A stretch of DNA of 64,000 nt from Vicinamibacteria bacterium (GTDB lineage: Bacteria; Acidobacteriota; Vicinamibacteria; Marinacidobacterales; Marinacidobacteraceae), in contig CAXXLQ010000004.1 in assembly GCA_963668695.2 (NCBI GenBank), positions 3,616,001 to 3,680,000 of the forward strand, given 5' to 3'. The position numbers and the translations under genes are program-made. How positions within the stretch are numbered: position 1 is the stretch's first letter; every line of letters starts with the position of its first letter. The notes under the pieces were generated by a model that was not told where the DNA came from, ran no database searches, and was given only the letters and a program-made list of their open reading frames with translations. This document shows positions 2,265 to 48,685 of this stretch, piece after piece.

Positions 2265-2399
2265 GCGGGGGTGGCCAGGGGTGCGTTTCGCCGTCCCCGA
2301 CCAGGTCGGTGCGATAGGAGTGATTGGGACGGGAGTTTCGCGGCCTTCGGCCGCGATGCCGGTCTGAAGGCCCCCACCGGGAGAACTGGCCGGCGCTCC
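2265..2399. repeat. REP/REPIN-like repeat ending in GATGCCGGTCTGAAG[20-mer]CCGGCGCTCC
   Basis: Reverse-complement homologue of 20032-20140; lies between convergent genes. Confidence 0.7.
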
Positions 2400-2423
2400 T
2401 GGGCGGCGCTCCTGGGCGGGTGC

Positions 2424-3875
2424 CTACCGGGTGAGCCCGGCCGCGGCGGCTTCCGGGACGCCGCCGAAATGACCGTTCGAGAGGAACAGGAAGACGGTCT
2501 GGTCGTCTCCACCGGCAAGTTCGCCCACCCGCCGGAGAAGCGCGGGGTGATCGCTCAGCACCTCCGCCGGCACGCCTCCCGACTCGAGGTCGAGGGCCAG
2601 ACGGTCGAGATCGAGGGACGCGGTTCCCGGCAGTCGGCGGCCGCGGCTCTCGCCGGCCGAGGAGGCCAGCAGGACCCGGTTCGCCGGCCGGAACGCCTCC
2701 GCGAACCGGTCCTGGAACACCGCGCTGCGAGCGGTGAAGGAGCGCGGTTCGAAGACCGGCACGAGACGCGCCTCCGGCCAGCGACCCGACGCCGCCTCGA
2801 TGACCGCCTCGACGGCGGTCGGGTGATGGGCAAAGTCCCGGACCACCAGCACCCGTCCATCCGGACTCGCACCAAGACGCTCGAGCCGCCGCTCCACCCC
2901 TGAAAACCGGCGGACGGCGTCGCGGATCGCTTCCCATTCGACACCGAGCCACTCGGCCGCGGCAGCCGCCGCCAGGACGTTCCGCGCCGAAGCCCGACCC
3001 CAGAACCGGCCCTCGAGGGGCGGCCGCGCCACCCCTCGAAACGACGGCAGGAGGCGGCTTCCGGAAGCGCCGCTCGCCTCGATGACCGCGGTCCAGTCGG
3101 CCCGAGCGTCGCCCCCGGGGGGTACGGAGAACGTCTGCACCGTGGTGTGGGCCGCCGAGGCGAGTTCGGCAGCGGCTGCCGAATCGGCGCCCAGCAGCAG
3201 GAGGCCGCGGCGCGGAGGCAGCCGGGCCAGAAAGGAAAACTGCCGCCGGACTGCCGCGAAATCGGCGTAGATGTCCGCGTGGTCGAACTCGACGTTGCCG
3301 ACGATGGCCACCTCCGGCAGGTAGTGGAGGAATTTGGGCCCCTTGTCCCAGTACGCCGTGTCGTATTCGTCGCCCTCGACAACGAAGGGCTCACCGGGCG
3401 CCCCCAACTCGAAACTCCCTCCGAGATCGCTCGCCACGCCTCCGACGAGGAAGCCCACATCCCGTCCCGCGGCCCGCAGAATCCAGGCGAGCAGCGAGGT
3501 CGTGGTCGTCTTCCCGTGGGTCCCGGCAACGACCACCGGCAACCGCGGACGGAGGACAAGTTCCCGGAGCGTTTCCGGGAAGGACACGAGCGGCAGGCGG
3601 CGATCGAGCGCCGCCTCCAGCTCGGGATTCCCGCGCGAGATCGCGTTTCCCACGATCACCGCACGACAAGCGTCGGGGAGATTCTCCGGCCCAAACGGCG
3701 TTCGAACCGCAATCCCCTCCTTTTCGAGGACCGTGGACATCGGGGGATAGGCCCCCTGGTCCGATCCGGTCACCAGATAGCCGAGCCGGGTGAGGAGTCC
3801 CGCGAGGGAGGCCATCGCGGTTCCCGCCACTCCGAGGACGTGGAGGGGATCGCCCGCCCGCAGCCCCTGGATCAC
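2424..3875 (-). CDS. mpl: UDP-N-acetylmuramate:L-alanyl-gamma-D-glutamyl-meso-DAP ligase (murein peptide ligase)
   Basis: GVAGTAMASLA, GNAISRGNPELE, AGTHGKTTT, EGDEYDTAYWDKGPKF, DFAHHPTAV; GTG start overlaps the upstream stop (GTGA). Confidence 0.9.
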   Translation of the reverse strand: MIQGLRAGDPLHVLGVAGTAMASLAGLLTRLGYLVTGSDQGAYPPMSTVLEKEGIAVRTPFGPENLPDACRAVIVGNAISRGNPELEAALDRRLPLVSFPETLRELVLRPRLPVVVAGTHGKTTTTSLLAWILRAAGRDVGFLVGGVASDLGGSFELGAPGEPFVVEGDEYDTAYWDKGPKFLHYLPEVAIVGNVEFDHADIYADFAAVRRQFSFLARLPPRRGLLLLGADSAAAAELASAAHTTVQTFSVPPGGDARADWTAVIEASGASGSRLLPSFRGVARPPLEGRFWGRASARNVLAAAAAAEWLGVEWEAIRDAVRRFSGVERRLERLGASPDGRVLVVRDFAHHPTAVEAVIEAASGRWPEARLVPVFEPRSFTARSAVFQDRFAEAFRPANRVLLASSAGESRGRRLPGTASLDLDRLALDLESGGVPAEVLSDHPALLRRVGELAGGDDQTVFLFLSNGHFGGVPEAAAAGLTR

Positions 3876-4789
3876 GCCACGGCGCCTTCCAGGAGGGTCA
3901 GTCCGTCGGCGTCCATGCGGGCGCGCACCTCGAACGGGACCGTGCGGCACGGATCCCCGTCCGTGTGTCCGGTGGCGAAACCGAAGACGGTGGGAACCCC
4001 GAAAGGCTCGCTGAGGCGAGCCAGGAGTTCCGCCGTCGTGTACCCCTGGTCCGGGTGCTGGGTGCAGCCGGGCATCTGGCCGAAGACGATGCCGCGCACC
4101 CCGTCCAGCAGTCCGGCGAACGACAACTGGGTCAGCATCCGCTCGATCTGGTACGGCTTGACGGAAACGTCCTCGACAACGGCGATGGCGCCGCGGAAGG
4201 AAGTCGCGAAACGGGTGCCCGCCAGCGCCGCGAGCATCGAGAGACAGCCTCCCCGGAGAACGCCCTCCGCACGGCCTGGATGGAGGCTTTCCGCGCCCCG
4301 CCAGGGCAAGTGGAAACCGGGTTCCCGGGCGCGCAGGAGGCCGAGCGTCTCCTCCGGGTCCCAGCGGGAGGGGCCGCGGGCGATCTGCTGCGCCACCATG
4401 GGGCCGTGAAACGACGCGACTTCCGCCCCCGAGGCAAGCGCCAGCAGCGCCGTCAGATCGCTCCCCCCGAGAATCGCCTTCGGATTCCGCCGCAGCCGAT
4501 CCACCGGGATGCGGGGAAGCAGATCGAGGCTGCCGTATCCCCCACGAGCGCCGAACAGCGCGGTGACTCCGTCATCTTCCAGAAGCTCAAGGAAGTCCTC
4601 GGTGCGCTCGGCAGCGGACCCGGCGGTGTATCCCCGCCGGTTGAGCAGATGTCTTGCCCGGCGCGGGACGAGTCCGACGCGCCGGAGTTCCGCTTCGCCC
4701 GCTTCGAGCCAGGGGAGCTGCACCGGACTGGCCGGCGCCAGGATCCCCACCGTCGCACCGGGATGGACCGCGGGGGGCCGGAATGCCAT
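3872..4789 (-). CDS. ldcA: LD-carboxypeptidase (peptidase S66)
   Basis: GILAPAS, ARGGYGS, GGSDLTAL (catalytic Ser), HGPM, GGCLS, ED, FATGH. Confidence 0.88.
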   Translation of the reverse strand: MAFRPPAVHPGATVGILAPASPVQLPWLEAGEAELRRVGLVPRRARHLLNRRGYTAGSAAERTEDFLELLEDDGVTALFGARGGYGSLDLLPRIPVDRLRRNPKAILGGSDLTALLALASGAEVASFHGPMVAQQIARGPSRWDPEETLGLLRAREPGFHLPWRGAESLHPGRAEGVLRGGCLSMLAALAGTRFATSFRGAIAVVEDVSVKPYQIERMLTQLSFAGLLDGVRGIVFGQMPGCTQHPDQGYTTAELLARLSEPFGVPTVFGFATGHTDGDPCRTVPFEVRARMDADGLTLLEGAVA

Positions 4790-5400
4790 CAGCGAAGGAG
4801 CCAGGAGGCGGCGGCCAGGACGGCCAGTGAAACGAGGACCACGAAAAGAACCCGCAACCGCGTGCGCCGCGGCTCTCCCGGAAGCGGTCCGGCGACATAG
4901 AGCCTCGGCGTCCTGGCGGGGGGCCACGGCTCGGTCTCGTGGCCGGCCGGTTCCTCCCCCTCGGCCGCCTCGGGAGCCATCGCCTCCGCCAGGGCGTCCG
5001 CGGTTGGCTCCGCTCCGGAGCGCGCGTCGGTCCCCTCCGTCGCACCAGCCTCGCCGAACGATTCGATGCGGCAGCGGGCGCCGCCAAAGAACAGGACGTC
5101 ACCGGGATGGATGCGCACCCGGGTGGGTACCGGGGCGCCGTTGACGCGGCTCTGGTTGGTGCTCTCCAGATCTTCGAGATGCAGTTCGAGGTCTCGGAGT
5201 ACGAGCCGCGCGTGTCTTCGGCTCACGAACATGTCGTCGAGCCGGACGGTGCACCCGGGAGATCGGCCGATGGTGGTTTCCCGGTTCTGAATCTCGTAGC
5301 GGGCCGGCGGCGGCTGGCGGTCTCCGGGGGAGTCGCCGGACCGGACGTTCTCCACCACGAGTTCGTAGAGCGCGGGGGTCGAGCCCGAGTCAGGGGTCAC
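4789..5400 (-). CDS. FHA-domain protein with C-terminal membrane anchor
   Basis: TIGRS...VSRRHA...DLESTNQSRVNG FHA motifs; hydrophobic C-terminus. Confidence 0.85.
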   Translation of the reverse strand: MTPDSGSTPALYELVVENVRSGDSPGDRQPPPARYEIQNRETTIGRSPGCTVRLDDMFVSRRHARLVLRDLELHLEDLESTNQSRVNGAPVPTRVRIHPGDVLFFGGARCRIESFGEAGATEGTDARSGAEPTADALAEAMAPEAAEGEEPAGHETEPWPPARTPRLYVAGPLPGEPRRTRLRVLFVVLVSLAVLAAASWLLR

Positions 5401-7466
5401 CGCGCCATTCCGAGCCGCCGGAGAGCCAGGGGCGCGAGCAGCGGTCCGTCGTGGGTCACGAGCGTGGCCCCGGTCACCTCGGCGGCGGCCTCGAACAGCT
5501 GTGCGGCCCGCGCGCGTTCCCCGAGCGCCTCAAGGGCGAGCGCCCGGTAGTAGAGGACCGTTCCGTCGCCGATACCCGGGCCGGTGGGGGCCCGCACTTC
5601 GTTCAGATACCGGACCAGCGCCCTCTCGGGATCCCCAAGCCGGATCCAGCAGATGCCGGCTTCGAGCTGCCGGGTCGCATCGCCCCGGCCTCGCGCGAAG
5701 TCGGCCTCGAGTTCCACCAGGCGCCGATTGCACTGTCCCGCGGAAAGCGAGGGCAGAACCGGCGTCTCGGAGAGCACCAGGCGCAGTTGCCGCTCGGCTC
5801 CCTCGCGCCGCACGACGAGGTCGATCGTGGTGTCCGGCGGCTCCATGGCGACGAGCTCCGCGAGCGCGAGCTCGTCGGACAGAAGGCGGCCCTCGATTTC
5901 GCGAAGCTCGTCTCCCGGTTCCATCCCGGCGAGCACGGCGGGGCCCGCCGGATGCACGCTCGCAACCTGGAGCCCCCTGGCCCCTCCCTCTTCGCCGGAA
6001 CTCGCGAGCGCCACCGCGGTCAGCCCGAGCCAGGACCGCCGCCGCCTGGGTGGTGTCAGGAGCCGCTCCGTGGCGGCGCCCGCGCTCGCGGGGGAGAAGC
6101 GATCGAACGGGACCACATCCGGCACCCGGGAACCCGCGGCGAGGAACTCGACCCGGGCTGGCCCGCTGCCGGATTCGGGGAGCCGGATCCGGACCCGCGC
6201 CTGGACCTCGTGTTCATCCAGCTCGTCCACGACGAAGTAGCCCTCCCTCGCCCGCAGGACGCGGTCGACCTCCCGGTCCGCTTCCGACGCTCCGTCCGGC
6301 CCGCTCGGGGTCAGCGCGAGAACCGGAAGCACCTCGCACGATATTGCCGTCCGGGAACCGCGCGAGACGGTGAAGGAGCGAACGCAGCGGCCGGCGCGAT
6401 GGTAGATCTCGACCTCGTGCTCTCCGGAGCACATCGCCGAAAATGAGACCGGCGTCACCCCTTGTTCCTCGCCGTCGAGCACGACCGTTCCGCCACTCGG
6501 TTCGCTCTCGATCCTGAGCCCGCCCGTGGAAGGCCGGAGCCTCAGGAAGCGGGGCAGATAGTCGCGGGCTTCGTCGGCGTGAAACGTGAACCGCGAAGGA
6601 GTCCGGCAAGGCGCCTCCAGGGTGATTTCGTTGGCCCCCGTTTCCAGGTTCCCGAGCTGAAGCGGCGCGGAGAATTCGTCGCGGGCGAAGCGCGGCGGGA
6701 CCAGCGGACGGAGATCCTCCGGAAGACTGCCGCCAGTCACTCCCGCCACGCGGCCTCCGACGCGCACGGTGACGCCCGCCGGCGAGGTGACCACGGAAAG
6801 CACCGGACGGCTGCGCTCCATCTCGTGCTCGATCGAGATCATTTCGCCCGCCAGCACTTCGCGGCGCGGTTCGGTGTACACGGCGTATCCCGGCCGCTGC
6901 AGCCGAATCGTGACGAGTCCGGCGAATAGCGGCCGGCCGGTGAGGGGCGTGACGCCGACCGCTTCATCTTCGACGAACACGGTTACGCCGGCCGGCTCGG
7001 TAAGGACGCTCAGATGGGCGAGCAGCTCACCCCGCTGCTGTTCGAACAGATCCACCGCCGCCGGAGAAAGTCCGGGCAGGTCGAGGCGCCAGGTCGGATC
7101 GGCCAGGATGAGCAGACGCAGGTCGTCCGCGGCCTGCTCCCGGGATTCCCGAGTCAGGTGGACTCGGGCCCGGTACTCGAGCGCCCTCAGGAAGAGCTCG
7201 GTCTCGACCTCCGGAAGCCTCCCCTGCGCGTCCCGGGCCGCATCGAGTTCGTCGAGGATCGCGGTCAGAGCGAGCACCGCCTCCACGGCCAGGTCGGGAT
7301 CTCCGGTCTGCGGACGCAGGGCCCGCAGTTCGGCGGCGATGGCGACCGGATCCTGAGAGGCCATCGTCTGCGGCGCGGCGCCCGCCGGGATCCCGAAGCC
7401 GTCCAGCGCCCCCGCCAGCAGGACCAGGATGATCCCCGCCGACACGGGGTTCTTGAAAGATCTCAC
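5397..7466 (-). CDS. Exported multi-PEGA + PDZ + TPR protein
   Basis: Signal peptide; PEGA repeats (VLTEPAGVTVFVED..GVTP; IESEPSGGTVVLDG..GVTP); PDZ-like VASVHPAGPA..AGMEPGDEL; start chosen at GTG 7466. Confidence 0.75.
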   Translation of the reverse strand: MRSFKNPVSAGIILVLLAGALDGFGIPAGAAPQTMASQDPVAIAAELRALRPQTGDPDLAVEAVLALTAILDELDAARDAQGRLPEVETELFLRALEYRARVHLTRESREQAADDLRLLILADPTWRLDLPGLSPAAVDLFEQQRGELLAHLSVLTEPAGVTVFVEDEAVGVTPLTGRPLFAGLVTIRLQRPGYAVYTEPRREVLAGEMISIEHEMERSRPVLSVVTSPAGVTVRVGGRVAGVTGGSLPEDLRPLVPPRFARDEFSAPLQLGNLETGANEITLEAPCRTPSRFTFHADEARDYLPRFLRLRPSTGGLRIESEPSGGTVVLDGEEQGVTPVSFSAMCSGEHEVEIYHRAGRCVRSFTVSRGSRTAISCEVLPVLALTPSGPDGASEADREVDRVLRAREGYFVVDELDEHEVQARVRIRLPESGSGPARVEFLAAGSRVPDVVPFDRFSPASAGAATERLLTPPRRRRSWLGLTAVALASSGEEGGARGLQVASVHPAGPAVLAGMEPGDELREIEGRLLSDELALAELVAMEPPDTTIDLVVRREGAERQLRLVLSETPVLPSLSAGQCNRRLVELEADFARGRGDATRQLEAGICWIRLGDPERALVRYLNEVRAPTGPGIGDGTVLYYRALALEALGERARAAQLFEAAAEVTGATLVTHDGPLLAPLALRRLGMAR

Positions 7467-7473
7467 CGTGCGT

Positions 7474-9045
7474 TCACCGGAGCACCGCCACCGCGTGCGT
7501 GGATTCGTCCAGCACGTAGAGCCCTCCATCGGGCCCCACGTCGAGGGATACCGGTCGGCGGACCGCACCGCCCGACCACTCTCCTCCCCTGAGCGTGACA
7601 AGCGGAGCGAAGTTCCGGTCGAAGACGGCGAGCGTCGGACCATCCCGGTCCAGAACGAAGAGGTTCCCCAACCCATCGAAGACCACGTCCACGGGCTCCG
7701 GGAAACCGGACTCCCGGGTGAGGTGGAAGATCCGCCGACCCTCCGCATCGAAAGCGAGAACTCCCTGACGCTCCTCGACGACGACCAGGTGTCCGGCGGG
7801 GTGCCGCTCGATCCGATGCACCTCGTCAAGACGGGGATGCTGCACCCGTCCGAGATGGAGGCCGGAACGGGCGAACCGGAACACCGTCTTCTCCCGGTCA
7901 TCCCAGATCCAGTACCCCTCGGGGGTGACCGTGATCGCGCGAATCCGCCGGAGCCGCTCGGGGCCGTTCGTGATCCGCAGGGTCAGAAGATTTCCGCCCA
8001 CCACCAGGGCTTCTTCGGTTGCCACCACCGGAATCGGCAAACCGCCGTTCCCCACCCCGGCATCCAAGTAGGCCAGATCCCAGGGGTTTTCAACCCCGAT
8101 CGCACCTTCGAACTCCCCGGCGCGCGAAAACGTCTGCAACTCGTCGGTGTCCCGGTCGAGAACGTGGATCCGGCCCCCTGCGATCCGCACCCGGCGCGGC
8201 CGGTCGAGCGGCTGCGGCGGCTGGATCGCACCGGTGAAACGCCAGGAAGGGCCGCCCGGCGACCGGTAGCGGGAGATGAGCGTCGCGAGTGCGCGGGCGT
8301 CTTCGGCAAGCCGGCGGGGGGAGAAGTCCCCAACGGCCTCGCCCGACGGATCGTCCCGGATCTCGTCCCGGATCGCGCGCAGGAGGTCCACGCGGAGCTC
8401 CGCCACCTCGCTGAAGGCCGCATCCGTTTCGCCGAGCCGCGCGAGGGTGCGGGCAAGCAGCAAGCGAGCGCGGAACCGCTCGGCTTCGGATGCCGGAGCG
8501 GCGCGGGTCTCGTGGAGTGCGGAGAGCAGGGCCCCCGCCACCGTCCGGTCGTCCATGAAATCGGACGCGATCCCGGCGATCCCGGTGAGCGCCGCGAAGG
8601 ACCAGGGAGAGCCCGAAGATCCGGCCGCGGTCAAGACCCGCTCGAACTCGGCCAGCGCGTCCTCGAGACGCGGCGGCAGGCTCGTGATCGCAATCCGTCC
8701 GAGCAGCAGGTGGGCTCCGGGGATCGAGTCGCCCGCCGGATACGCGCGAAAGAGACGGTCCACCATCTCCTCCGCGGCGACCGGGTCCCCCTCGACTTCG
8801 AAACGGTGCCGGGCAATTCGCAGGGCCGCGTCATCGGCGAGCCGACTCCCGGGCATGGTGTCCAGGATGGCTTCGAAATCGCGGAGCGCCTGACCGTAGC
8901 GCCCTCCCGCATAGAACTGCTCCGCACTCCGAAACCGTCGTTCGGCGGCACGTTCGAGCTGGGCATCGGTTTCCGTCTGGGCGGAAAGCGGAGACGCAAC
9001 CGCAAGCCCGATCAGAGCCGAAAGCCATGCCACGCGAGTGGTCAT
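7474..9045 (-). CDS. Exported TPR (BamD/YfiO-like) + NHL beta-propeller protein
   Basis: Signal peptide; YPAGDSIPGAHLLLG TPR-like segment; NHL-like repeats (PVDVVFDGLGNLFVLD, PVSLDVGPDGGLYVLD). Confidence 0.75.
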   Translation of the reverse strand: MTTRVAWLSALIGLAVASPLSAQTETDAQLERAAERRFRSAEQFYAGGRYGQALRDFEAILDTMPGSRLADDAALRIARHRFEVEGDPVAAEEMVDRLFRAYPAGDSIPGAHLLLGRIAITSLPPRLEDALAEFERVLTAAGSSGSPWSFAALTGIAGIASDFMDDRTVAGALLSALHETRAAPASEAERFRARLLLARTLARLGETDAAFSEVAELRVDLLRAIRDEIRDDPSGEAVGDFSPRRLAEDARALATLISRYRSPGGPSWRFTGAIQPPQPLDRPRRVRIAGGRIHVLDRDTDELQTFSRAGEFEGAIGVENPWDLAYLDAGVGNGGLPIPVVATEEALVVGGNLLTLRITNGPERLRRIRAITVTPEGYWIWDDREKTVFRFARSGLHLGRVQHPRLDEVHRIERHPAGHLVVVEERQGVLAFDAEGRRIFHLTRESGFPEPVDVVFDGLGNLFVLDRDGPTLAVFDRNFAPLVTLRGGEWSGGAVRRPVSLDVGPDGGLYVLDESTHAVAVLR

Positions 9046-9057
9046 GAAGGGGAACTG

Positions 9058-9699: not shown

Positions 9700-9936
9700 C
9701 TAACAGCCTGTGGCAAAACCCACGCGGCCCAGTTCTCCCGGTGGGGGCTCGACCGGCGATCCATCCCGGCTGAACCACTCCGCTTCGCTGCGTTCTGCAT
9801 TGCGGTCGAAATACACCCGGGCCAGTTCTCCCGGTGGGGGCTCCTCCCTCACGCGCCTTGTCAGCCGGGCGCCTCGCCCCCACCGGGAGAACTGGCCGGC
9901 CTCGGCGCTCACGTGGGTTCCACCACCGGCTGCTAA
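9700..9936. mobile_element. YTAR-flanked hairpin MITE-like element, copy A
   Basis: CTAA-CAGCCTGTGG...CCACCGGCTG-CTAA; conserved core; three copies of the 20-mer. Confidence 0.8.
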
Positions 9937-11972: not shown

Positions 11973-11977
11973 GATCG

Positions 11978-12180
11978 CTAGCGGCCGGTGGACAAAGTCA
12001 CGTCAGCACCGAGACCGGCCAGTTCTCCCGGTGGGGGCGAGGCGCCCGGCTGACAAGGCGCGCGAGGGAGGAATACCGAGTGTATTTCGACCGAAGCGCA
12101 ACGATGAGCGCCTCGCAGAGGCGCGGTTCAGCCGGGATGGATCGCCGGTCGAATGCAGCGTGACTTTGTGCACCGGTGGC
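11978..12180. mobile_element. Hairpin MITE-like element, copy C (degenerate right end)
   Basis: CTAG-CGGCCGGTGGACAAAGTCACG...CGTGACTTTGTGCACCGG; conserved CAAGGCGCG core. Confidence 0.75.
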
Positions 12181-12789: not shown

Positions 12790-13743
12790 TCAGATACCCA
12801 GGTCACGCAGAATTCCAGGATTGTCCCGCCATTTCGCCCGGACTTTCACCTGCAGATCGAGAAAAACCTGACGGCCGATCCGTTTTTCGATACGCCCGCG
12901 CGCCTCGGTGCCGATTCGCTTCAGCATCTGGCCTCCCCGGCCGATCACGATCCCCTTCTGGGAGTCCCGATCCAGGAGCAGCGAGGCCGCGATGCGGACC
13001 AGGGGGCCGGAATCGTCGTACTCCTCGATCCGGACCGCGGCGGCGTGCGGGACCTCCTGATGGAGGTTCTCGAGCATCCGCTCGCGGACGATCTCCGACG
13101 CGAAGAAGGCTTCCGGAAGATCGGTGATCTGGCCGTCGGGATAGAGGGGAGGACTGAAGGGAAGACGCGCCGTGAGCGTTCCGACCAGCGAGTCGGCCGC
13201 GCTGTCCCCCTGCCCCCGGTCTTCGGGGTCTTCCATATTCGTTCCGGTGCGCGCCGAGAACGCCACCACCGGACCCAGCTGCTGCTCCCGGTAGAACGCT
13301 TCGAGTTCCCCGCGCCGGAGACGGGGCGCCGCGTCGATCTTGTTGATGCCGATCACCCGGGGACCGGGAAAACCCTCCAGCCGGCGAAGGAGATCCCGGT
13401 CGGCGTCGGAGAGAGCCCGGGTTCCGTCCACGACCGCGAGCGCCACGTCCGCTCCCCCGAGACTCTGGGTCACCGTCCGCATCATCGCCCGGCCGAGGCC
13501 GGTCCGGGGCCGGTGGATTCCCGGGGTGTCCAGCAGGATCAGCTCCAACCCCGGGCGGCGGGCGACGCCGAGGATGCGGCGCCGGGTGGTCTGGGGCTTC
13601 TTGTGGACCGCCGCCAGCCGTTCCCCGACCAGGCGGTTCAGAAGGGTGGATTTCCCGGCGCCCGGCAGCCCGACCACCGCCACGAAGCCGGCGCGGTGTT
13701 CGGGGTTTTCCAGCGGGCCCGGTTCAGACGGTAAGGAGGTCAA
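12790..13743 (-). CDS. era: GTPase Era
   Basis: GFVAVVGLPGAGKSTLLN, KPQTTR, DTPG, NKID, SQKGIVIGRGG KH domain. Confidence 0.95.
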   Translation of the reverse strand: MTSLPSEPGPLENPEHRAGFVAVVGLPGAGKSTLLNRLVGERLAAVHKKPQTTRRRILGVARRPGLELILLDTPGIHRPRTGLGRAMMRTVTQSLGGADVALAVVDGTRALSDADRDLLRRLEGFPGPRVIGINKIDAAPRLRRGELEAFYREQQLGPVVAFSARTGTNMEDPEDRGQGDSAADSLVGTLTARLPFSPPLYPDGQITDLPEAFFASEIVRERMLENLHQEVPHAAAVRIEEYDDSGPLVRIAASLLLDRDSQKGIVIGRGGQMLKRIGTEARGRIEKRIGRQVFLDLQVKVRAKWRDNPGILRDLGI

Positions 13744-14440
13744 TTAACAGCCTGTAGTGGAACCCGGGTGAGCGCCGAGAGCGGGGAGGCCCAGTTCTCC
13801 CGGTGGGGGTCCGGCTGACAAGGCGCGTGAGGGAGGAGCCCCCACCGGGAGAACTGGCCCGAGTGTATTTCGACCGAAACGCAACGCAGAGCGCCGCGCA
13901 GCGGCGCGGGTAACAGCCTGTGGTGGAACCCGGGTGAGCGCCGAGGTTGGCCAGTCCTCCCGGTGGGGGCGAGACGCCCGGCTGACAAGGCGCGTGAGAG
14001 AGGAGCCCCCACCGGGAGAACTGGCCCGGGTGTATTTCGACCGAAACGCAACGATGAGCGGCGCGCAGCGACGCGGGTAACAGCCGGTGGTGGAACCCGG
14101 GTGAGCGCCGAGGTTGGCCAGTCCTCCCGGTGGGGGCGAGACGCCCGGCTGACAAGGCGCGTGAGAGAGGAGCCCCACCGGGAGAACTGGCCCGGGTGTA
14201 TTTCGACCGAAACGCAACGATGAGCGGCGCGCAGCGACGCGGTCAGCCGGGATGGATCGCCGGCCGAACGCCGCGTGGGTTTCGTCACCGGCTGTTTGCC
14301 CGGGATGGATCGCCGGCCGAGCCCCCACCGGGAGAACTGGGCCGCGTGGGTTCCACCACCGGCTGTTTGGCCGGGATGCATCGCCGCTCGAGCCCCCACC
14401 GGGAGAACTGGGCCGCCTGGGTCTCACCACAGGCTGTTAG
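13744..14440. mobile_element. Triple-nested hairpin MITE-like locus (L-L-L-R-R-R)
   Basis: Left arms start at 13748, 13914, 14081; right arms end at 14294, 14365, 14436; outer flanks TTAA/TTAG. Confidence 0.8.
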
Positions 14441-15660
14441 CCTCTCCCAACTCGCGCCAGGCGGACGCGGTGGATCCGCCGCTCGTCGGCCTCGAGGATC
14501 TCGATGCGGAGGCCGTCGTGCTCGATCGCTTCGCCGGGCGCCGGAATCTTCCGGAAGGCCGCGAGCGCGAAACCGGAGATGGTGTCGAAGGCGGCGCCAT
14601 TCAGGGAGTCGGGGAGCAGCAGCCCCGTCACCCGTGAAATCTCATCGAGTTCCGCCCCGCCGCGAACCCGGAAGACGCCATCCGCCTCGCGCACCAGGTC
14701 CTCTTCCAGAGGCTCGTCCTCCTCGTGGACCTCACCCACGATTTCCTCCGAGATGTCACGAAGCGTCACGATGCCCGAAACACTGGCGTGTTCGTCCACA
14801 ACCACCGCGAATGTCTGCTTGGAGAGCTTGAACTCGCGCAGCATTTCGTCCACCCGTTTGGTCTCCGGCACCACGGGCACGTCCCGGAGCAGCGGAGCGA
14901 GTCCCTGGCGGTCTCCGGGTACGGCGATCAGGTCCACGGCATCCACCACCCCCACCACCTGGTCGGCGGCGCCGAAGACCGGAATCCGGTGGTGCCGGCT
15001 GTCGGCGATGAGACGCTCGACCTCCTGCCGCGAGGCCTCGGCGGACACCGAGACGACGTTCGGCCGCGGCGTCATCACCTCGCGCACCAGCATTTCGTCC
15101 AGCTCCAGAACGCCGCGCACCATCGCCGCCTCTTCTTCTTCGAGGATCCCCTCTTCCTCGCCGGTTTCGAGAAAGGCCTCCACCTCCTCGTCCGAAGCTT
15201 CGTCGTCCGGCTCCGAGGGGAGCGGGAAACCGCGCCGCAAGAGGTTGCGGAACGGCTCGGCGAAGGGGCGGACGAGCCGTTCCCAGCGGCCGAACCAGGG
15301 CAGGAGCGGAAGCAGCACGTCTTCCGGGTCGCGCAGCAGGATGGCGGCAGGAACCAGTTCCCGGAGGATGAACCACGCCGGGACGAAGACGCCGAAGGTC
15401 CACAGGAGGCCCGTAGCGCCGAAACCCATCCGATCGAGCACGAAGCCGAGGAGCGCGCCGGCCATCAGGAGACCGAAACGAGCCGGGATGAGCACCACGA
15501 GCGGGTCCGCCAGGCGTTCCCGCAGCGTGCGCGCTTCCTCGACGCTTTCGCCGAGAGCCCGGACCGCGATGGGGCTGGACGCGAAGAACGCGATCTCGAA
15601 GAGGGCGAAGAGAACGACGAGGAGGCCGGCGACCAGCAGGAGCGCGAACCAGAGGACCAT
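14437..15660 (-). CDS. Hemolysin/CNNM family protein (DUF21 + CBS pair + CorC_HlyC)
   Basis: N-terminal TM segments; VREVMTPR, VPETKRVDEMLREF, AVVVDE..GIVTL.D..EEIVGE, DTISGF. Confidence 0.9.
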   Translation of the reverse strand: MVLWFALLLVAGLLVVLFALFEIAFFASSPIAVRALGESVEEARTLRERLADPLVVLIPARFGLLMAGALLGFVLDRMGFGATGLLWTFGVFVPAWFILRELVPAAILLRDPEDVLLPLLPWFGRWERLVRPFAEPFRNLLRRGFPLPSEPDDEASDEEVEAFLETGEEEGILEEEEAAMVRGVLELDEMLVREVMTPRPNVVSVSAEASRQEVERLIADSRHHRIPVFGAADQVVGVVDAVDLIAVPGDRQGLAPLLRDVPVVPETKRVDEMLREFKLSKQTFAVVVDEHASVSGIVTLRDISEEIVGEVHEEDEPLEEDLVREADGVFRVRGGAELDEISRVTGLLLPDSLNGAAFDTISGFALAAFRKIPAPGEAIEHDGLRIEILEADERRIHRVRLARVGRG

Positions 15661-15663
15661 GGG

Positions 15664-15904
15664 TTAGCAGCCTGTGGACAAGGTGGCGTGAGCGCCGAGA
15701 GCGGTGAGGCCCAGTTCTCCCGGTGGGGGTCCGGCTGACAAGGCGCGCGAGGGAGGAGCCCCCACCGGGAGAACTGGCCCGAGTGTATTTCGACTGAAGC
15801 GCAACGATGAGCGAAGCGATGCGAAGCGTTTCAGCCGGGATGCATCGGCGCTCGAGCCCCCACCGGGAGAACTGGGCCGCGTCACTTTGTTCACAGGCTG
15901 TTAA
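15664..15904. mobile_element. Hairpin MITE-like element, copy E
   Basis: TTAG-CAGCCTGTGGACAAGGTGGCG...CGTCACTTTGTTCACAGGCTG-TTAA; right flank is the ybeY stop. Confidence 0.8.
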
Positions 15905-25946: not shown

Positions 25947-26082
25947 GGTCCGGAACCGTCAGGGACCGCCGGCCAGTTCTCCCGGTGGGGGCCTTCAAGA
26001 CCGGCAACGCCCGCCGCAGGCGGGCAGCACTGCGTACAGCCGTCTCGCGCTGATGGCGCGCGACAGCGGGAACGTCGCCCCC

Positions 26083-32110: not shown

Positions 32111-32310
32111 ATGGCTACTAGTAGCAGTAACACCATCGGACCCGGTGAACTAGTAGCAGTAACACCGTCGGACCCAGTGAACTAGTAGCAGTAACGCCCT
32201 CTGCTGGACTGCTACTAGTAGCAGCAGCGCTGTCAGACCCGATGAACTAGTAGCAGTAGCACGGTCTGGCGGACTGCTACTAGTAGCAACGACACGGTCA
32301 GCCCGGGAAC
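32111..32310. repeat. Six-unit 32/33-bp tandem array built on ACTAGTAGCA
   Basis: CTAG at 32118, 32150, 32182, 32215, 32247, 32280. Confidence 0.9.
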
Positions 32311-33029: not shown

Positions 33030-33252
33030 CGGGGCGGTGCCGGGCCCCACCGGGAGAACTGCCCAGAGGTCGGCGTTCCAAGCCGTCCCCGCGATTCTCC
33101 TCAAACAGCGATGCGCGGTTTCGCTGGGCTTCGCCCAGCGGTGCCGGTCTGAAGACCGGCGTTCCCGTACCTGCGTCCCGTGCACCCGGTCGGCGATGGG
33201 CCCGCCCGCTGCGCTGCGCGCCGCGGTGCCGGTGTGAACACTGGTGTTCCCT
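33030..33252. repeat. Cluster of REP-like palindromes
   Basis: GCCGGTCTGAAGACCGGCGTTCCC, GCCGGTGTGAACACTGGTGTTCCC and a 20-mer-bearing variant. Confidence 0.65.
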
Positions 33253-35316: not shown

Positions 35317-35451
35317 GCGCGGCGCACTTCTAGCCGTCCCCGCGCTTTCTTCCGGTCGCGGTGGGCGTTTCGCCCCCTGTGGGGGCGATGCCGGTCTGAA
35401 GGCCCGCACCGGGAGAACTGGCCGGCGCTCCGGGCCCATACTTGGCGACGC

Positions 35452-38724: not shown

Positions 38725-38943
38725 CAACCTGTGATGAAACCCGAGCGGCCCAGTTCTCCCGGTGGGGGCTCGGCCGGCGATCCATCCCGGCTGAACCACT
38801 GCGCTTCGCTCCGTTCTGCGTTGCGTTTCGGTCGCAATACACCCGGGCCAGTTCTCCCGGTGGGGGCTCCTCCCTCACGCGCCTTGTCAGCCGGGCGCCT
38901 CGCCGGCCTCGGCGCTCACCCGGGTTCCACCACAGGCTGTTGA
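38721..38943. mobile_element. Hairpin MITE-like element, copy G, inside the ABC operon
   Basis: TTAA-CAACCTGTGATGAAACCCG...CGGGTTCCACCACAGGCTG-TTGA; left flank is the ATPase stop. Confidence 0.8.
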
Positions 38944-41100: not shown

Positions 41101-41109
41101 GCCGTGTGA

Positions 41110-43095: not shown

Positions 43096-43101
43096 GTCGA
43101 T

Positions 43102-43270: not shown

Positions 43271-44932
43271 ATGCGTGCCTCGCCCTCCGCCCCGTTTCTG
43301 TTGGCAGTCCTGATCGCGGGCTGCAGTCCCACCGAGCCGCCGCCCGCCCGCCCCAACATCCTCGTCCTCATGGCCGACGATCTCGGCTACACCGACATCG
43401 GGGCCTTCGGCGGCGAGATCCGGACTCCGAACCTGGACGCGCTGGCCGCGTCGGGATTGCGGTTCACAAGCTTCTACACCGCCGCCACCTGCTCCCCGAC
43501 CCGCGCGATGCTGCTCTCCGGAGTGGATCATCACCGGGCCGGGCTCGGGGGCATGGCGAGCCTGATGGGGGACGACCTCGAGGGCCGGATCGGCTACGAG
43601 GGGTACCTGAACGAGCACGTCCTCCACCTGCCGGCGGTGCTGCGCAGCGCGGGGTACCACACTTCGATCGCCGGGAAGTGGCACCTCGGCCAGGCGGCGG
43701 ACCAGAGCCCCCCGACCCGCGGATTCGACCGCTCCTTCGTCCTCCTCACGGGGGCGGCCAGCCATTTCGAGGACGCCGCGCCCGTGGACACCCTCGACGA
43801 CATCCACTACCGGCGCGACGGAGAGATCGTTCCCGCGCTTCCGGAGGGCTTCTACTCGACCCGGGCCTATACCGACGAACTGATCGGCTACATCCGGGAG
43901 GCGGGCGAAGCGGGCCAGCCGTTCTTCGCCCTCGGGACGTACACCGCGCCGCACTGGCCGCTCCAGGTCCCCGACGAGTTCCTCGACCTCTACGCCGGCG
44001 CCTACGACGACGGCTGGGAGGAACTGGCCGGACGGCGCGTCGCCGGAGCGAAGCGGGCCGGCGTGATTCCGGAAGACGCGGTCCTCCCGCCGCTGCCCAA
44101 CTATTCCCGGCGCTGGGACGAACTGAGCGACGAAGAGCGCCGGGTCGAGGCCCGGAAGATGGAGCTCTACGCCGCCATGGTCGAACGGCTCGACCACCAC
44201 GTGGGCCGGCTGATCGCGGCGCTCCGCGAACTCGGGGAGTTCGACAACACCCTGATCGTCTTCTTCTCCGATAACGGCGCGGCCGGCGAGGACGTGAGCC
44301 GACTCGCCGACAACCAGACCTTCCTGCCCGAGCGCTTCGATCTCTCCTACGAGACCATGGGCCGCCTGAACTCGTTCGTGTACTACGGCCCCGAGTGGGC
44401 CAGCGCGGCGAGCGGCCCCTACCGCTACTTCAAGCAGTTCGTCCACGAGGGCGGCATTCGGGTGCCCGGCTTCGCGGTCGTTCCCCCAACCCTCGCCGAG
44501 CGGCTTCCGGGTGCCACGACCGGCGCCTTCGTTCACGTGACCGACCTGTTTCCCACCTTCCTCGAGCTCGCGGGGGCGGAAATGCCGGCCCCGGAGGACA
44601 AGATCCTGCCGGTCGGGCAGTCCATCGTTCCCCTGCTGCGCGGCGAAGTGGAGACGGTCCACCTCGAACCCACGGGCGGCTGGGAGATCTTCGGCCGCCG
44701 CGCGATCCGCAAGGGTCCGTGGAAGGCCGCCTGGCTGGCCCCGCCGCTCGGGAAGGGCGACTGGGCGCTCTACAACCTGGACGATGACCCGGGCGAGTTG
44801 ACAGACCTCGCCGGCGAGCGCCCGGAGGTGCTCACGGAACTCCTCGCCGCGTGGGACGACTATGTGGAGGAGAACGGAGTCATCGTGGTGGAGGAGGACC
44901 GGGCCTTCGGCCCGCCGCGACTCCAGCGTTGA
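43271..44932 (+). CDS. Arylsulfatase, Cys-type, lipoprotein
   Basis: PNILVLMADDLG, CSPTRAMLLSG, GKWHLG, APHWP, SDNG. Confidence 0.93.
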   Translation: MRASPSAPFLLAVLIAGCSPTEPPPARPNILVLMADDLGYTDIGAFGGEIRTPNLDALAASGLRFTSFYTAATCSPTRAMLLSGVDHHRAGLGGMASLMGDDLEGRIGYEGYLNEHVLHLPAVLRSAGYHTSIAGKWHLGQAADQSPPTRGFDRSFVLLTGAASHFEDAAPVDTLDDIHYRRDGEIVPALPEGFYSTRAYTDELIGYIREAGEAGQPFFALGTYTAPHWPLQVPDEFLDLYAGAYDDGWEELAGRRVAGAKRAGVIPEDAVLPPLPNYSRRWDELSDEERRVEARKMELYAAMVERLDHHVGRLIAALRELGEFDNTLIVFFSDNGAAGEDVSRLADNQTFLPERFDLSYETMGRLNSFVYYGPEWASAASGPYRYFKQFVHEGGIRVPGFAVVPPTLAERLPGATTGAFVHVTDLFPTFLELAGAEMPAPEDKILPVGQSIVPLLRGEVETVHLEPTGGWEIFGRRAIRKGPWKAAWLAPPLGKGDWALYNLDDDPGELTDLAGERPEVLTELLAAWDDYVEENGVIVVEEDRAFGPPRLQR

Positions 44933-44965
44933 CGCATTCCGGCCAGGGGCCGGTCCGCCGGGTTC

Positions 44966-46435
44966 CTACTTCAGGAAGTCCTTCGCGCCGAACCGGCGGG
45001 CGAGCGCCACGGACCAGGAAGGACGCCCCAGCGGAGCGGCGGCGGCCGGCCGGTCCCGAACGATGAACCGGCCGCTTCCCGGCAGAGCGCGCGGCTGACC
45101 GTCCCGGACCACAACCTCGCCGCGCCGGAGCACGGTCTCCGGAAACCCCTTGATCTGGCGGCCCTCGTAGGGCGAATACCCGACGTGGTCGTGGAGATCC
45201 TCCCAGCGAATGTCCACCACCTGGTCGGGATTCCAGATCGCGAGGTCGGCGTCGCTTCCGGGCTGGATCGTTCCTTTTCTGGGATAGAGGCCGAAAAGCC
45301 GCGCGGGCGCTTCGCAACAGACGGCAACGAAGCGCTGGAGGCTGATCCGCGCCTTGCCGACGCCTTCCGAGAAGAGCAGCGGCATCCGTAGTTCGACCCC
45401 TGGCACCCCGTTGCAGATCTTCGGGAAGGGCGGCTCGGGACCGGCCGCCAGCTTCCCCTTGTCGTCGAATCTGTAGGGGGCGTGGTCCGAACTCACCACG
45501 TCGAAGGTTCCGTTCGCGATTCCCTCCCAGAGCGCCTCCTGGCACTCCTCGTCGCGGGGCGCCGGGCTACAGCAGAACTTGGCGCCCTCCATGCCTGGCT
45601 TGTCGAGGTCCTCCGCAGTGAGCAGGAGGTACTGGGGACAGGTCTCGGCGAACACCTTGAGCCCGCGCCGCCGGGCGGCCGCGATCTCTTCCGCGGCTTC
45701 TTTCGAGGAGACGTGGACGACGTAGAGGGGCGCGTCCACGAGTTCGGAGAGCTCGATGGCGCGTCCGGTGGCTTCGCTCTCGGCGAGCTTCGGGTGGCCG
45801 GCGGCGTGGAACTTCGGGGCCTTATGGCCTTGTCCGACGAGGCGCTCCGAGAGCCAGCCGATCATGTCGTGGTTCTCGGCGTGGACCATGGTGAGCGCGC
45901 CCATGCGCCGCGCCGCTTCCAGCACGTCGAGGAACTGGCGGTCATCCAGACGCACCAGGTCGTAGGTCATGTAGATCTTGAAGGAAACGACTCCTTCGTC
46001 CACGAGCTGCGGAATCTCCGTCTCGAGCGCCTGCGGCGTGGGGTCGGAGACGATCAGGTGGAACCCGTAGTCGGAAACCGCCTTCGGTCCCGCAGCCTCG
46101 TGGTAGGCGGCCACCACTTCCCGCGGCGACGCTCCCCGTCCCTGCACCGCGAAGGAGAGCACCGTCGTCGTCCCCCCGCACACCGCCGAGACCGTCCCCG
46201 AGTGGTAGTCGTCGGCGCACATCAATCCCATCGAGGACTTCTGCTCGATGTGGGTGTGCGCGTCCACCCCGCCGGGAATGACCAGCCGGCCCTTCGCGGA
46301 GATCTCTTCCTCTCCCGCGCCGAGTCCCGGCGCGACGGCCTGCACCACACCCCCCGAAATCCCGACGTCCGTGGACCGGACGCCGTCGGCGGTCACCACG
46401 GTCCCGCCGCGCACCACCGTTTCGAAATCAGGCAT
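44966..46435 (-). CDS. hydA: Dihydropyrimidinase / D-hydantoinase
   Basis: PGGVDAHTH, GGTTT, SFKIYMTY, VHAEN, ETCPQYL, SSDHAP, GSDAD. Confidence 0.92.
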   Translation of the reverse strand: MPDFETVVRGGTVVTADGVRSTDVGISGGVVQAVAPGLGAGEEEISAKGRLVIPGGVDAHTHIEQKSSMGLMCADDYHSGTVSAVCGGTTTVLSFAVQGRGASPREVVAAYHEAAGPKAVSDYGFHLIVSDPTPQALETEIPQLVDEGVVSFKIYMTYDLVRLDDRQFLDVLEAARRMGALTMVHAENHDMIGWLSERLVGQGHKAPKFHAAGHPKLAESEATGRAIELSELVDAPLYVVHVSSKEAAEEIAAARRRGLKVFAETCPQYLLLTAEDLDKPGMEGAKFCCSPAPRDEECQEALWEGIANGTFDVVSSDHAPYRFDDKGKLAAGPEPPFPKICNGVPGVELRMPLLFSEGVGKARISLQRFVAVCCEAPARLFGLYPRKGTIQPGSDADLAIWNPDQVVDIRWEDLHDHVGYSPYEGRQIKGFPETVLRRGEVVVRDGQPRALPGSGRFIVRDRPAAAAPLGRPSWSVALARRFGAKDFLK

Positions 46436-46528
46436 CGGAAGCGCGCAATTCTAAAGGGGACCCGTCCGTTACCGTTGCCCGCTTCCCGGAACCGGCCAAG
46501 CGTGCGCCCGGGGAGGGAGTCTTGAGCG

Positions 46529-46833
46529 ATGAGCCCGCGGGAACTGGTGGAAGCCTTCTACTTCGAGGTCTGGAACCGGGCTGACGAGGACCGGGCCCGG
46601 GAGATCCTGCACGACTCCTTCCGCTTCCGGGGATCGCTGGGCGCCGAACGGATCGGACCCGACGGATTCATCGCCTACCTGCGGGACGTCCATCGCGCGC
46701 TCGGCGACTACCGCTGCATCATCGACGACCTCGTCGTGGAGGAGGATCGAGCCGCGGCGCGCATGCGCTTCACAGGCCGCCACCGGGACGTGTTCCAGGG
46801 CGTACCCGCCACCGGCCGGCAGATCACCTGGGG
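46529..46833 (+). pseudogene. SnoaL-like ester cyclase, 3'-truncated
   Basis: LVEAFYFEVWN..AARMRFTGRH..FQGVPATGRQITW, then runs into the antisense of the permease remnant. Confidence 0.7.
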
Positions 46834-47811
46834 CCGCCACGATCAACGGGTCCCTGAGCGCCTGCAGCAACAAGCGCTGCGGCGTGGCGCCCACCGCCAC
46901 CCGCACGGCGAGTTCCTGCCGTTTGGTGAGCTCCAACGCCAGAAACAGGGCGCCGACGTTGACGATCGCCACGAGCATCACGAGAGCGCTCGCCGCCAGC
47001 AGCAGAAGAATGATGGGACGCACGTCGCCAAGCAGGTCGTCGTCGAAGGTCTCGGCCGACGCGGTCATGCCGCGCAGCGTCACGGGAAGCACCGCGAGGT
47101 CGCTCTGGAGGTAGTTCGTGAGTTCGGACGCGGACTGGTCGACCGTCGCGCCAGGCGCTAGACGGCCGACCAGGTACACATAGAAGTCTGGCGGGCCGGT
47201 TTCCGCGACGGGGCGGAACGGACGCGCCGTCGCCCACACCTCGGTCTGGGCTGGAAATCCGAAGCCACGAGGCATGACCGCGACAATCGCCGCCGCCTGC
47301 TCTCGAATTGTGAGCACGCGGCCGGCGCCGCGGCCACACTGTCATCTTCCGCCCGGATGGTGCGGCCAAGCAGGGGCGTGACGCCGAGCACGTTGAATAG
47401 ATTCCCGGTGACGAACGCGACCTTGAGGTTCACGCCCTCCCCTTGCTCGCGCACGGGGTGGGTGGCCGCACCGTGATAATCGACCCCGGCGACGGCGGAG
47501 AGCGTCTCCGGCGAGGCGTCCACGAATCCCTTGAACGCGGCGTAAGGGACCGGCACGCGCTGCGCTCCGACGGCCCGATCGACGCCCCACAGCACCGACA
47601 ATTGCCGTTGCTCATGCACGGGCAAAGGCCGCATGAGCACAGCATCGGCGATGCTGAACGTCGCGGCAGAGGCGCCAATACCGATCGCGAGGGTCGCCAC
47701 CGCGACGAGACTGAGGGTCGGCCGCTTCGCGGCCGTGCGTAGCGCACGCGCCAACTGGCGCCCAAGCTCACGCAGGTGATCGACCGATGTCGGGCCTGGA
47801 CTGGACGGCAT
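46834..47811 (-). pseudogene. ADOP/MacB-like ABC permease remnant, frameshifted and truncated
   Basis: TLAIGIGASAATFS..VLMRPLP; frame change near 47320; IVAVMP..GRLAPG..ELAVRVAVGA; second half absent. Confidence 0.8.
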
Positions 47812-47874
47812 CGTCAGATCCTCCGGTCGCTCCCGGGCATCTCCTCTGATCGCTGTGGATCGTGAGTTTCCCGC

Positions 47875-48363
47875 CTACTCCTTCACCACCCGTCCGAACA
47901 TGAACCCCCCGACCTCGCCGTGGTCCCAGGTGCCGGCGTAGCGGTCGCCGTCGAAGACGACGGTCGCGCCAAACTCGCTGCCCAGACCGGGGATCTCGAC
48001 GTCCACCAGCCGGATCATCGGCACGTTCCCGGCCCAGAGGATCGGAACCACCACCGGCAGGGTGACGTCCACGTCCCCGTAGGTGATCCGGGCATCGAAC
48101 CGCCACCGGGCGCCGTCCAGTTTCGTCACCCCCGCGATCTCGTAGCGGTCGCGGTAGACACCCTCCCGAGGTTCCGGCCAGGCCACGGTGAAGCTGCCGT
48201 CGAGGACAACATCGCGCATGCTTTCCTCGAAGACGCGCTCGCGCTCTTCGAGCGTCGCCTCCGGGGCGACCCGTCCCACTCCGATCCCCGAAGCGAGCCA
48301 GCCGGCGCCCCAGGCGAGAGCGAGCAGCGACACGAGCGCTGCAACCTTCAGGATGTTTCGCAT
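47875..48363 (-). CDS. Hypothetical exported/membrane protein
   Basis: GGAGG RBS; hydrophobic N-terminus; normal codon usage; YAGTWDHGEVGGFMFG. Confidence 0.7.
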   Translation of the reverse strand: MRNILKVAALVSLLALAWGAGWLASGIGVGRVAPEATLEERERVFEESMRDVVLDGSFTVAWPEPREGVYRDRYEIAGVTKLDGARWRFDARITYGDVDVTLPVVVPILWAGNVPMIRLVDVEIPGLGSEFGATVVFDGDRYAGTWDHGEVGGFMFGRVVKE

Positions 48364-48390
48364 GGACGAGCCTCCAGAACGGGGATGACG

Positions 48391-48685
48391 TTAGCAGCCG
48401 GTGGACAAAGTCACGCGGCATTCCCGAGCCAGAAGAGATGGGGGTCGGGTGCCCCCGTCCCCCGTCTCTTCCGCTCCGGGGTCTCCGCGGTGCTGGCGCC
48501 CCGCTCCGGAAGCGGCCGGCGATACATCCCGGCTGAAACGCGCCGCTTCGCGGCACTCGTCGTTGCGCTTCGGTCGAAATACACCCGGGCCAGTTCTCCC
48601 GGTGGGGGCTCCTCCCTCGCGCGCCTTGTCAGCCGGGCGCCTCGCCAGCCTCGGTGCTCACGCGACTTTGCCCACCGGCTGCTAG
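48391..48685. mobile_element. Hairpin MITE-like element, copy I, carrying the 1790-type module
   Basis: TTAG-CAGCCGGTGGACAAAGTCACG...CGCGACTTTGCCCACCGGCTG-CTAG. Confidence 0.8.

Follow-up and report, generated by a model that had tools for sequence, protein, structure and literature searches.

Short interspersed repeats of bacteria are usually explained as miniature inverted-repeat transposable elements (MITEs), as repetitive extragenic palindromes (REPs) moved by REP-associated tyrosine transposases (RAYTs), or as uptake or binding sites. REPs and REPINs are high-copy extragenic palindromes, often in inverted pairs, which are non-autonomous and moved in trans by a RAYT (Y1). Rickettsia palindromic elements (RPEs) are ca. 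100-150 bp long, palindromic, and lie in frame in genes, to which they add short peptide loops. The pneumococcal BOX elements (with copy-number variation of boxB) and the bacterial interspersed mosaic elements (BIMEs) of E. coli are mosaics of small modules, and we know of no case in which one of these modules inserts alone into unrelated repeats or genes. The Neisseria repeat NTS/SRM (dRS3/NTS) is a hairpin of ca. 30 nucleotides (nt) found in hundreds of copies together with a small single-strand nuclease, Ssn (Chenal et al., 2025, PMC11893778), and the BoxC/PIT/TMECO triplex has the consensus CCCTCNCCC N3-6 GGGNGAGGG N3 GGGNGAGGG (PMC4666352). Here we describe a non-palindromic motif of 18-20 nt that is repeated in a 64,000-nt stretch (the window) of the genome of a Vicinamibacteria bacterium of the sponge-type Acidobacteria (assembly GCA_963668695.2, contig CAXXLQ010000004.1, positions 3,616,001 to 3,680,000). 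The motif is an insertion unit in its own right, extremely short and not fixed within its hosts, and it has entered new DNA many separate times, while most of its ca. 1,600 copies arose by riding on multiplying MITEs and REPs.

The 20-mer GCCCCCACCGGGAGAACTGG has 22 matches in the window at three mismatches or fewer (14 exact), on both strands, against an expectation of 0.02 from 100 shuffles, none of which reached 22. A first-pass annotation of the same DNA had listed about 23 copies; 22 of them were found within 1 base, and the 23rd (ca. 32385) is degenerate, with an indel, and is no match at this threshold. The genome-wide count and the replichore-strand check suggested there were run on the whole assembly (G000; 4.10 Mb in 4 contigs, 67.5% G+C, 91.7% complete, 9.3% contamination) and gave 1,646 matches at the same threshold, 962 of them exact (ca. 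1 per 2.5 kb), with both strands equally used and no replichore bias along the chromosome. A strong strand bias in another genome, G018, was an artefact of the way matches are listed and was rejected on recheck. Some 300 kb of G000 are doubled at 97.6-99.7% identity (C1 vs C4:310-421 kb, C3 vs C4:3505-3538 kb, and C4:13.6-148 kb vs C4:3783-3914 kb), seemingly as co-assembled strain variants, so that raw copy counts are slightly inflated, in agreement with the contamination estimate. The information content drops steeply at both ends of an 18-nt core, CCCCACCGGGAGAACTGG, which is usually preceded by GC (the 20-mer is GC plus these 18 nt), and the second base 3' of the core is usually C. Read from the sequence, self-complementarity is limited to CCGG, and a single copy forms no hairpin, for which two inverted copies are needed.

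Compared with NTS/SRM, the motif is likewise a short fixed sequence in hundreds of copies whose number differs sharply between related species, and the likeness extends to the clustering around genes and to the proposed role as recognition site of a small sequence-specific enzyme. It differs in that it is 18-20 nt long and non-palindromic instead of a ca. 30-nt hairpin and in that no small GIY-YIG gene was found in G000; NTS copies in frame in genes or inside other repeats are not reported in PMC11893778, in the parts compared. High copy number and the frequent inverted, hairpin-forming pairs recall REPs and REPINs, from which the motif is set apart by its lack of a palindrome, by the absence of PF01797 matches in G000 and by the fact that it inserts into REP hairpins. 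Like BoxC/TMECO, it is a G+C-rich, highly conserved and unexplained interspersed repeat without a known mobilising enzyme, but motif and usual flanks do not fit the three-block consensus of ca. 37 nt (compared by eye). It shares small in-frame gene insertions with RPEs, although it adds exactly six codons and has no symmetry, and shares with BOX and BIMEs a mosaic build with a module that varies in tandem number (142 pairs of adjacent 18-nt tandem copies in this genome). Unlike MITEs of the IS630/Tc1-type DDE kind, it has no terminal inverted repeats and shows no TA duplication at gene or repeat sites, where 1-4 target bases are lost instead; unlike IS200/IS605 elements, it comes with no TnpA (Y1) or TnpB match above cut-off and no replication-orientation bias; and the high and similar copy numbers expected of DNA uptake sequences (DUS) or uptake signal sequences (USS) contrast with 0-1 to 1,566 copies within one family. 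The motif works most like NTS/SRM-Ssn and REP-RAYT, and like BoxC and RPEs in its in-frame habit, and it lacks the defining features of each. There is a real chance that the mechanism is new in kind.

The evidence for insertion comes from sites that exist in empty and filled form. Taking the 30 most frequent pairs of 8-nt flanks, we looked throughout G000 for each pair with 0-45 nt of any sequence in between, and found that identical flanks enclose 1-2 nt, the 20-mer, or 38 nt corresponding to two tandem 18-mers. The flanks CCGGCCGA..GCCGCGTG enclose AC 43 times and the 20-mer 122 times; between TCAGCCGG and GCCTCGCC there is GC in 172 cases, a single motif in 62 and a tandem pair in 73; GGCGCCTC..CCGCTCTC hold A, G or C in 63 cases and the motif in 37; and GTCTGAAG..CCGGCGCT hold either A (27 cases) or the motif. 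For AGGGAGGA..CCCGGGTG there is no empty form, nearly all of the 165 occurrences being filled, and the same site is empty (GGAGGA-ATA-CCG) in a second MITE subfamily, present in the window, and in other genera. There are at least 20 distinct motif contexts, nearly all of the form GC-[18]-C/G. The coexistence of empty and filled alleles that the first-pass annotation had described for the window is therefore real and genome-wide in the same-flank search, and its net gain of 18-19 bp was reproduced by the flank search, with 18 or 19 nt at filled sites throughout. The difference is also seen between closely related sequences. One REP copy differs by a 19-nt motif-only indel between two strain variants within the G000 assembly, the sole clean motif-only case among the strain-variant indels listed (the remaining ones being one difference in the copy number of a 50-bp tandem unit and differences of whole MITEs), and one MITE copy common to G000 and its closest relative, G001, has AC in one and the 20-mer in the other.

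The motif has also entered unique genes, three of them of a housekeeping type. One copy is found in an RND/AcrB-like transporter, 1,296 nt into an open frame of 3.2 kb (G+C at third codon positions, GC3, 0.91), and adds the in-frame peptide PHRENW. This insertion is present in only two of 25 family genomes, G000 and G001; the other 23 have GAGCCCG-CG-CGGGAT or a variant of it, where G000 has GAGCCCG-GCCCCCACCGGGAGAACTGG-CGGGAT; the insertion hit the middle of the palindrome CCCGCGCGGG. In G000 it is one copy, seen on two allelic contigs. In Mfd, G012 has GGCG-GCCCCCCACCGGGAGAACTGGT-GCGCCC vs GGCG-AGAC-GCGCCC in its nearest relative, G007, while G010 has a decayed motif at the same place, 12 nt longer than the empty form, and 16 of the 18 aligned genomes are empty. 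An Lhr-like helicase carries the motif in reverse orientation in three of 15 genomes (G001, G004 and G008), the change in motif orientation being from GGG-CG-CC to GGG-20-mer-CC, and G000 and the 11 others are empty. All three insertions are net gains of 18 nt, in frame (six codons), with 2-4 target bases replaced and no duplication; the comparison of filled and empty alleles in related genomes, proposed in the first pass, has thus provided empty orthologous sites in three genes. In total, 87 copies in G000 fall within long open frames of high GC3, at a depth of 150 nt or more, most of them near frame edges, and of these the RND copy alone is confirmed by orthologues. That all copies are intergenic and inside repeats, as stated at first, holds for the window as far as inspected and fails for the genome because of this in-frame transporter copy. 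In G018, a larger repeat with a convergent motif pair sits in the uninterrupted frame of a polyketide synthase, between ketosynthase (KS) and acyltransferase (AT) (L008, G018:C1:417200-417650), more precisely between the ketosynthase end (..SSFGYSGTNVHLVLEG) and the following linker.

From repeats and genes together, the signature of insertion is a net gain of 18 (sometimes 19) nt, the replacement of 0-4 (typically 2) target bases and no target duplication, in targets that are G+C-rich and often palindromic or hairpin-forming. The unit is too short for two transposon ends and has no hairpin, yet it has entered unique genes and several unrelated repeats, and the loss of ca. 2 bases without duplication is unlike the transposition chemistry of any family tested.

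Most copies are found in other repeats. In the main contig, the 3.78 Mb that are not duplicated hold 1,525 copies, which we classified by their flanks: 1,204 are in one MITE family (522 in the arm, 314 in the end module, 306 in the centre and 62 at another site), 157 in REP hairpins and 164 in other contexts, so that ca. 90% belong to two repeat families. Where a copy has unique flanks, its host is mostly a diverged REP hairpin, and such hairpins carry perfect motifs. As a motif-free MITE reference we used the copy at 11981..12178 of the window with its motif removed (186 nt), to which 1,061 of 1,528 copies of this genome could be mapped. Insertions are found at ca. 10 positions (37, 40-42, 47, 58, 78, 114, 124, 130, 142 and 158), position 58 being seen in G018 only and position 78 not being seen in the samples of G018 and G019; orientation is uniform at each position, and other genera have several of the positions in common. 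Much of the internal variability of these MITEs is explained by the motif. The five or more positions in two unrelated repeat families that had been counted in the window are therefore exceeded, with ca. 10 MITE positions, REP hairpins, other repeats and three genes.

The motif is much better preserved than the DNA around it. With anchors placed outside the motif (171 of 177 copies usable at site A of the MITE and 86 of 89 at site C), the mismatch per position was 0.36% in the motif vs 5.3% in the flanks at site A, and 0.26% vs 13.4% at site C; this flank variation is largely subfamily polymorphism, and an estimated 1.7% or so is left in the site A flanks without the two most variable positions. 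The initial claim that the motif is more conserved than its hosts is borne out by these outside anchors (0.26-0.36% vs 5-13%). In G018, 220 of 259 copies are the exact 18-mer, the matches to a 20-nt MITE marker have 2-3 mismatches each among the matches listed, and a segment of the RND protein is 77% identical to that of G000; at one MITE site G018 has a diverged copy, CCCTACCGGGAGAACCGG, and at the others the canonical motif.

A search for the 18-mer with no more than one mismatch in 41 genomes found it in each of the 15 further genomes of the genus (between 8 and 776 copies vs 1,566 in G000) and in five of nine genomes from other genera of the family, four (G017, G021, G022 and G024) having no copy at all; there was none in 16 genomes of two sister families, and the reversed sequence used as a control gave 1 match across the 41. 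Motif-rich genomes are G000, G001, G004, G008 and G018; low-copy genomes are G012 with 8, G010 with 15 (two contigs) and G020 with 1 (one contig). In public genome contigs the exact copies come almost all from metagenome-assembled genomes of Candidatus Marinacidobacterium, Vicinamibacteria or Acidobacteria, with four unrelated records that have single copies each, among the matches listed in both cases; viral contigs gave one motif match. Genomes without the MITE marker are also without the motif. However, the number of motifs per marker goes from 0.02 (G020, 49 markers and 1 motif) and 0.15 (G010) to 2.5 (G000) and more than 5 (G018), which indicates that the motif is not simply a part of the MITE. 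In the literature searched we found no paper on the motif, on its complement (whole or part) or on the genus name, and, among the papers listed, none relevant on repeats of sponge Acidobacteria.

For the spread of such a unit, the explanation that we favour, tentatively and at somewhat less than an even chance, is that the motif is the recognition site of a putative sequence-specific protein and travels as a ca. 20-bp piece rejoined at breaks. A DNA-binding or DNA-cutting protein would recognise the motif and release or protect it as a piece of ca. 20 bp, which would then be rejoined by end joining into breaks in G+C-rich palindromic or hairpin DNA (Ku is present in G000). Release and rejoining would produce sharp ends, small target deletions, both orientations, 18-nt tandems, and identity across genera despite the drift of the hosts. 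It is also possible, although we regard it as doubtful, that the motif represents a novel kind of mobile DNA reduced to a minimum: 18-20 bp without a palindrome, made up of nothing but the recognition site of a putative sequence-specific nuclease or integrase. It would be cut or copied out and pasted with a target deletion of ca. 2 nt and no duplication, G+C-rich palindromes or hairpins would be preferred, and six codons could be added to essential genes. Were this true, no smaller DNA element that spreads by itself would be known to us. A dedicated enzyme, if it exists, would have a long (18-nt) recognition site of possible practical use; if there is no enzyme, the motif would show plainly how repeat DNA can seed itself in nature via break repair. 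Insertions of this type are one way in which symbiont genomes and proteins gain small insertions.

Several points weigh against a unit that inserts often and with the help of a protein. Gene conversion between repeat copies could be the source of the REP indel and of the MITE indel between G000 and G001; it cannot be the source of the three gene insertions. Since every MITE position is used in one orientation only and several are shared between genera, many of the MITE sites could each go back to one old event, passed on by descent or exchanged along with the MITE. The firm independent events number ca. 13-20 and not hundreds. The patchy distribution in Mfd and Lhr would require interspecies recombination, repeated insertion at the same site, or loss. 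The identity of the motif across genera could stem from the exchange of repeats between bacteria living in one sponge host. In G012, a low-copy genome, seven motif copies have ordinary genes as neighbours (MutL, GlyS, a permease, PTS and others), and among the families tested there is no candidate for a mobilising protein. G000 is 91.7% complete, so that the absence of a gene is not proof.

That search gave 0 matches in G000 to the Y1/RAYT transposase (PF01797), which was matched in 6 of 14 control genomes, no reverse transcriptase candidate (PF00078, RVT_1), no small GIY-YIG protein of the Ssn type (ca. 90-100 aa) and nothing above cut-off for TnpB. The sole PF01541 match lies in a 664-aa open frame, putatively UvrC-like. 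Counts of Uma2 nucleases among genomes do not follow motif counts. Known insertion sequences (IS) were considered as the source of the motif and rejected: three IS630 loci have their own, different ends without it, the single IS110 locus sits between REP copies and has no motif at its ends, and a 2.2-kb IS, inserted in a REP loop, has inverted ends of its own. Neither is it a tRNA-derived attachment core or derived from a structural-RNA master copy, since the 58 tRNA and tmRNA genes (ARAGORN) have at most 7 contiguous nt in common with it, nor did a master copy in a gene appear, unique-flank copies being mostly diverged REP hairpins instead. Rfam found nothing at gathering score in the window, with chance-level matches only at 13700-14460. 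Three mechanisms had been offered in the first pass. The scar or recombination site of a hairpin-targeting element finds no support here, with Y1/RAYT, RVT, Ssn and TnpB not found and the inspected IS ends free of the motif; templated micro-insertion or capture of a short piece and a selected protein-binding site are the two leading candidates. The motif is not a library adapter or primer, since many independent assemblies contain it and it is found in frame within genes.

The alternative that survives best, unlikely but by no means negligible, does without a dedicated protein and supposes a self-propagating hairpin stem, in which the ca. 20-bp stem of convergent pairs defines the fragment. 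A convergent pair would fold into a stem complementary over the 20-mer only, nucleases would trim loop and flanks (or a polymerase would switch template at the stem), and the ca. 20-bp piece would be captured at breaks in other hairpins or palindromes. There are 270 convergent inverted pairs with loops of 31-38 nt in G000, and the fold of one of them (13770-13880; -33.5 kcal/mol, z-score -5.4) has a stem of ca. 20-22 bp, with stems of ca. 20 bp in the other convergent pairs of the pile at 13740..14440. The complementarity ends in sequence at GC plus 18, the inserted piece is not identical at its ends, with differences of 1-3 nt (GCC+18+T in Mfd; in RND and Lhr, G on either side when set against MITE site B), small target deletions together with Ku agree with end joining, and the families searched yielded no enzyme. 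However, a stem leaves unexplained why the 18 nt are unchanged in several genera in which MITE flanks and proteins have diverged. Besides, paired MITE sites lack quasi-palindromic flanks, which does not favour intramolecular template switching, and the Mfd insertions are found in low-copy lineages, G012 (8 copies) and G010 (15).

The motif might instead be a binding or DNA-uptake site selected by the host, with chance insertions driven up by biased transformation or recombination, as has been proposed for DUS and USS, which we consider improbable. Its density, the equal use of strands without replichore bias, the terminator-like hairpins formed by motif pairs, the conservation across the family and the constraint relative to flanks would all suit such a role, and the patchy Lhr and Mfd alleles suggest interspecies recombination. 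As an uptake site, which the first-pass annotation had considered, it is a poor fit to copy numbers that range in related genomes from 1 (G020) and 15 (G010) to 1,566, with four genomes of the family having none, and to the concentration of ca. 90% of the copies in two repeat families; moreover, the insertion of an 18-nt block is itself left unexplained.

We give very little credit to the view that the motif is an old module of MITEs and REPs without mobility of its own, acquired in a few ancestral gains and followed by deletions and gene conversion. The single orientation at each MITE position, the positions common between genera, the absence of MITEs from motif-free genomes and the possible gene conversion behind the indels of orthologous repeats are compatible with it. 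What argues against it are three unique coding insertions with empty orthologues in most relatives, the 0.02 to >5 span in motifs per MITE and the perfect motifs inside diverged REP hairpins. A single ancestral gain with later losses, raised in the first pass, is not what is seen, with insertions at ca. 10 MITE positions, in REPs and in three genes. Least probable of all is a known repeat-plus-enzyme system (REP/REPIN-RAYT, NTS/SRM-Ssn or an IS200/IS605-type single-strand element), which would account for the similar abundance and hairpin association and has a parallel in the hundreds of motif copies tied to a small nuclease in the Ssn paper (PMC11893778), but the motif is no hairpin, PF01797 had no match, the only PF01541 domain is in the 664-aa frame, TnpB is absent above cut-off and there is no replichore strand bias.

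The copies and empty sites of the window are collected in Table 1.

Table 1. Motif copies, empty sites and host repeats in the window (position 1 is the first base of the 64,000-nt stretch).
Feature	Position	Strand	Remarks
Motif copy in REP hairpin (..GCCGGTCTGAAG-20-mer-CCGGCGCTCC)	2370..2389	+	
Motif copy, MITE end module, site C	9729..9748	-	MITE reference position 158
Motif copy, MITE centre, site A	9822..9841	-	
Motif copy, MITE arm, site D (..GGCGCCTC-20-mer-CCGGCCTCGG)	9876..9895	+	
Second-subfamily MITE copy	11981..12178	+	Ends approximate; one motif 12019-12038 (- strand); empty centre site GGAGGA-ATA-CCGAG
Pile of nested/tandem MITE parts	13740..14440	+	Nine motif copies: 13791-, 13838+, 13951-, 14005+, 14118-, 14171+, 14321+, 14392+ plus partners
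Empty site C in pile (CCGGCCGA-AC-GCCGCGTGGG)	14268..14269	+	Adjoins two filled copies of the same module
MITE with three motifs	15711..15875	+	15711-, 15758+, 15856+
Motif copy, REP-like context	25973..25992	-	
Motif copy beside REP arm (..CCAGAGGTCGGCGTTCC)	33043..33062	+	2 mismatches
Empty REP hairpin (GCCGGTC-TGAA-GACCGGC)	33142..33160	+	A at 33155 is the base swapped for the 20-mer in filled copies
Motif copy in REP hairpin	35402..35421	+	1 mismatch
MITE with two motifs	38750..38867	-	38750-38769, 38848-38867
Motif copy, MITE centre site	48590..48609	-	

The pile at 13740-14440 consists of three MITE left parts followed by three right-end modules, as if repeatedly nested at one internal place. 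Contigs of four of 17 sponge metagenome runs (X1, X5, X9 and X11) break at repeats, and only the presence or absence of whole MITEs is visible in them. A contig of run X1 joins across 11976-12176, skipping the MITE, and run X5 skips both this MITE (with 7 other letters between) and 13743-14445, so that populations differ in the presence of entire MITEs and MITE piles. At ca. 32170-32290, just upstream of the degenerate motif copy, there is a run of several copies of a different small repeat, based on the palindrome CTGCTACTAGTAGCAG.

Outside the window, the 2.2-kb IS mentioned above is present in two copies 99.7% alike (G000:C4:1786003-1788216 and C4:3128216-3130428), with a 640-aa frame and inverted ends ACCCGACTTCGCCA.., each inserted into a REP hairpin loop, one directly beside a motif. 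An intact-looking IS630-type element at G000:C4:667 kb (L123; 465-aa frame, ends CTAGTGTGGTGTCCC..) occupies a CTAG site precisely between two motif-bearing MITE copies. In another genome (L003, G016:C50:15747-18764), three motifs head tandem units (165-218 bp) of another repeat, with part of one unit given as N. Finally, G000 has a 23-kb tandem array at C4:2803874-2826790, with a period of ca. 351 bp and copies 85-94% alike, in a 50-kb bin with a G/C skew of 0.164; the array may be a giant repetitive gene or a satellite.

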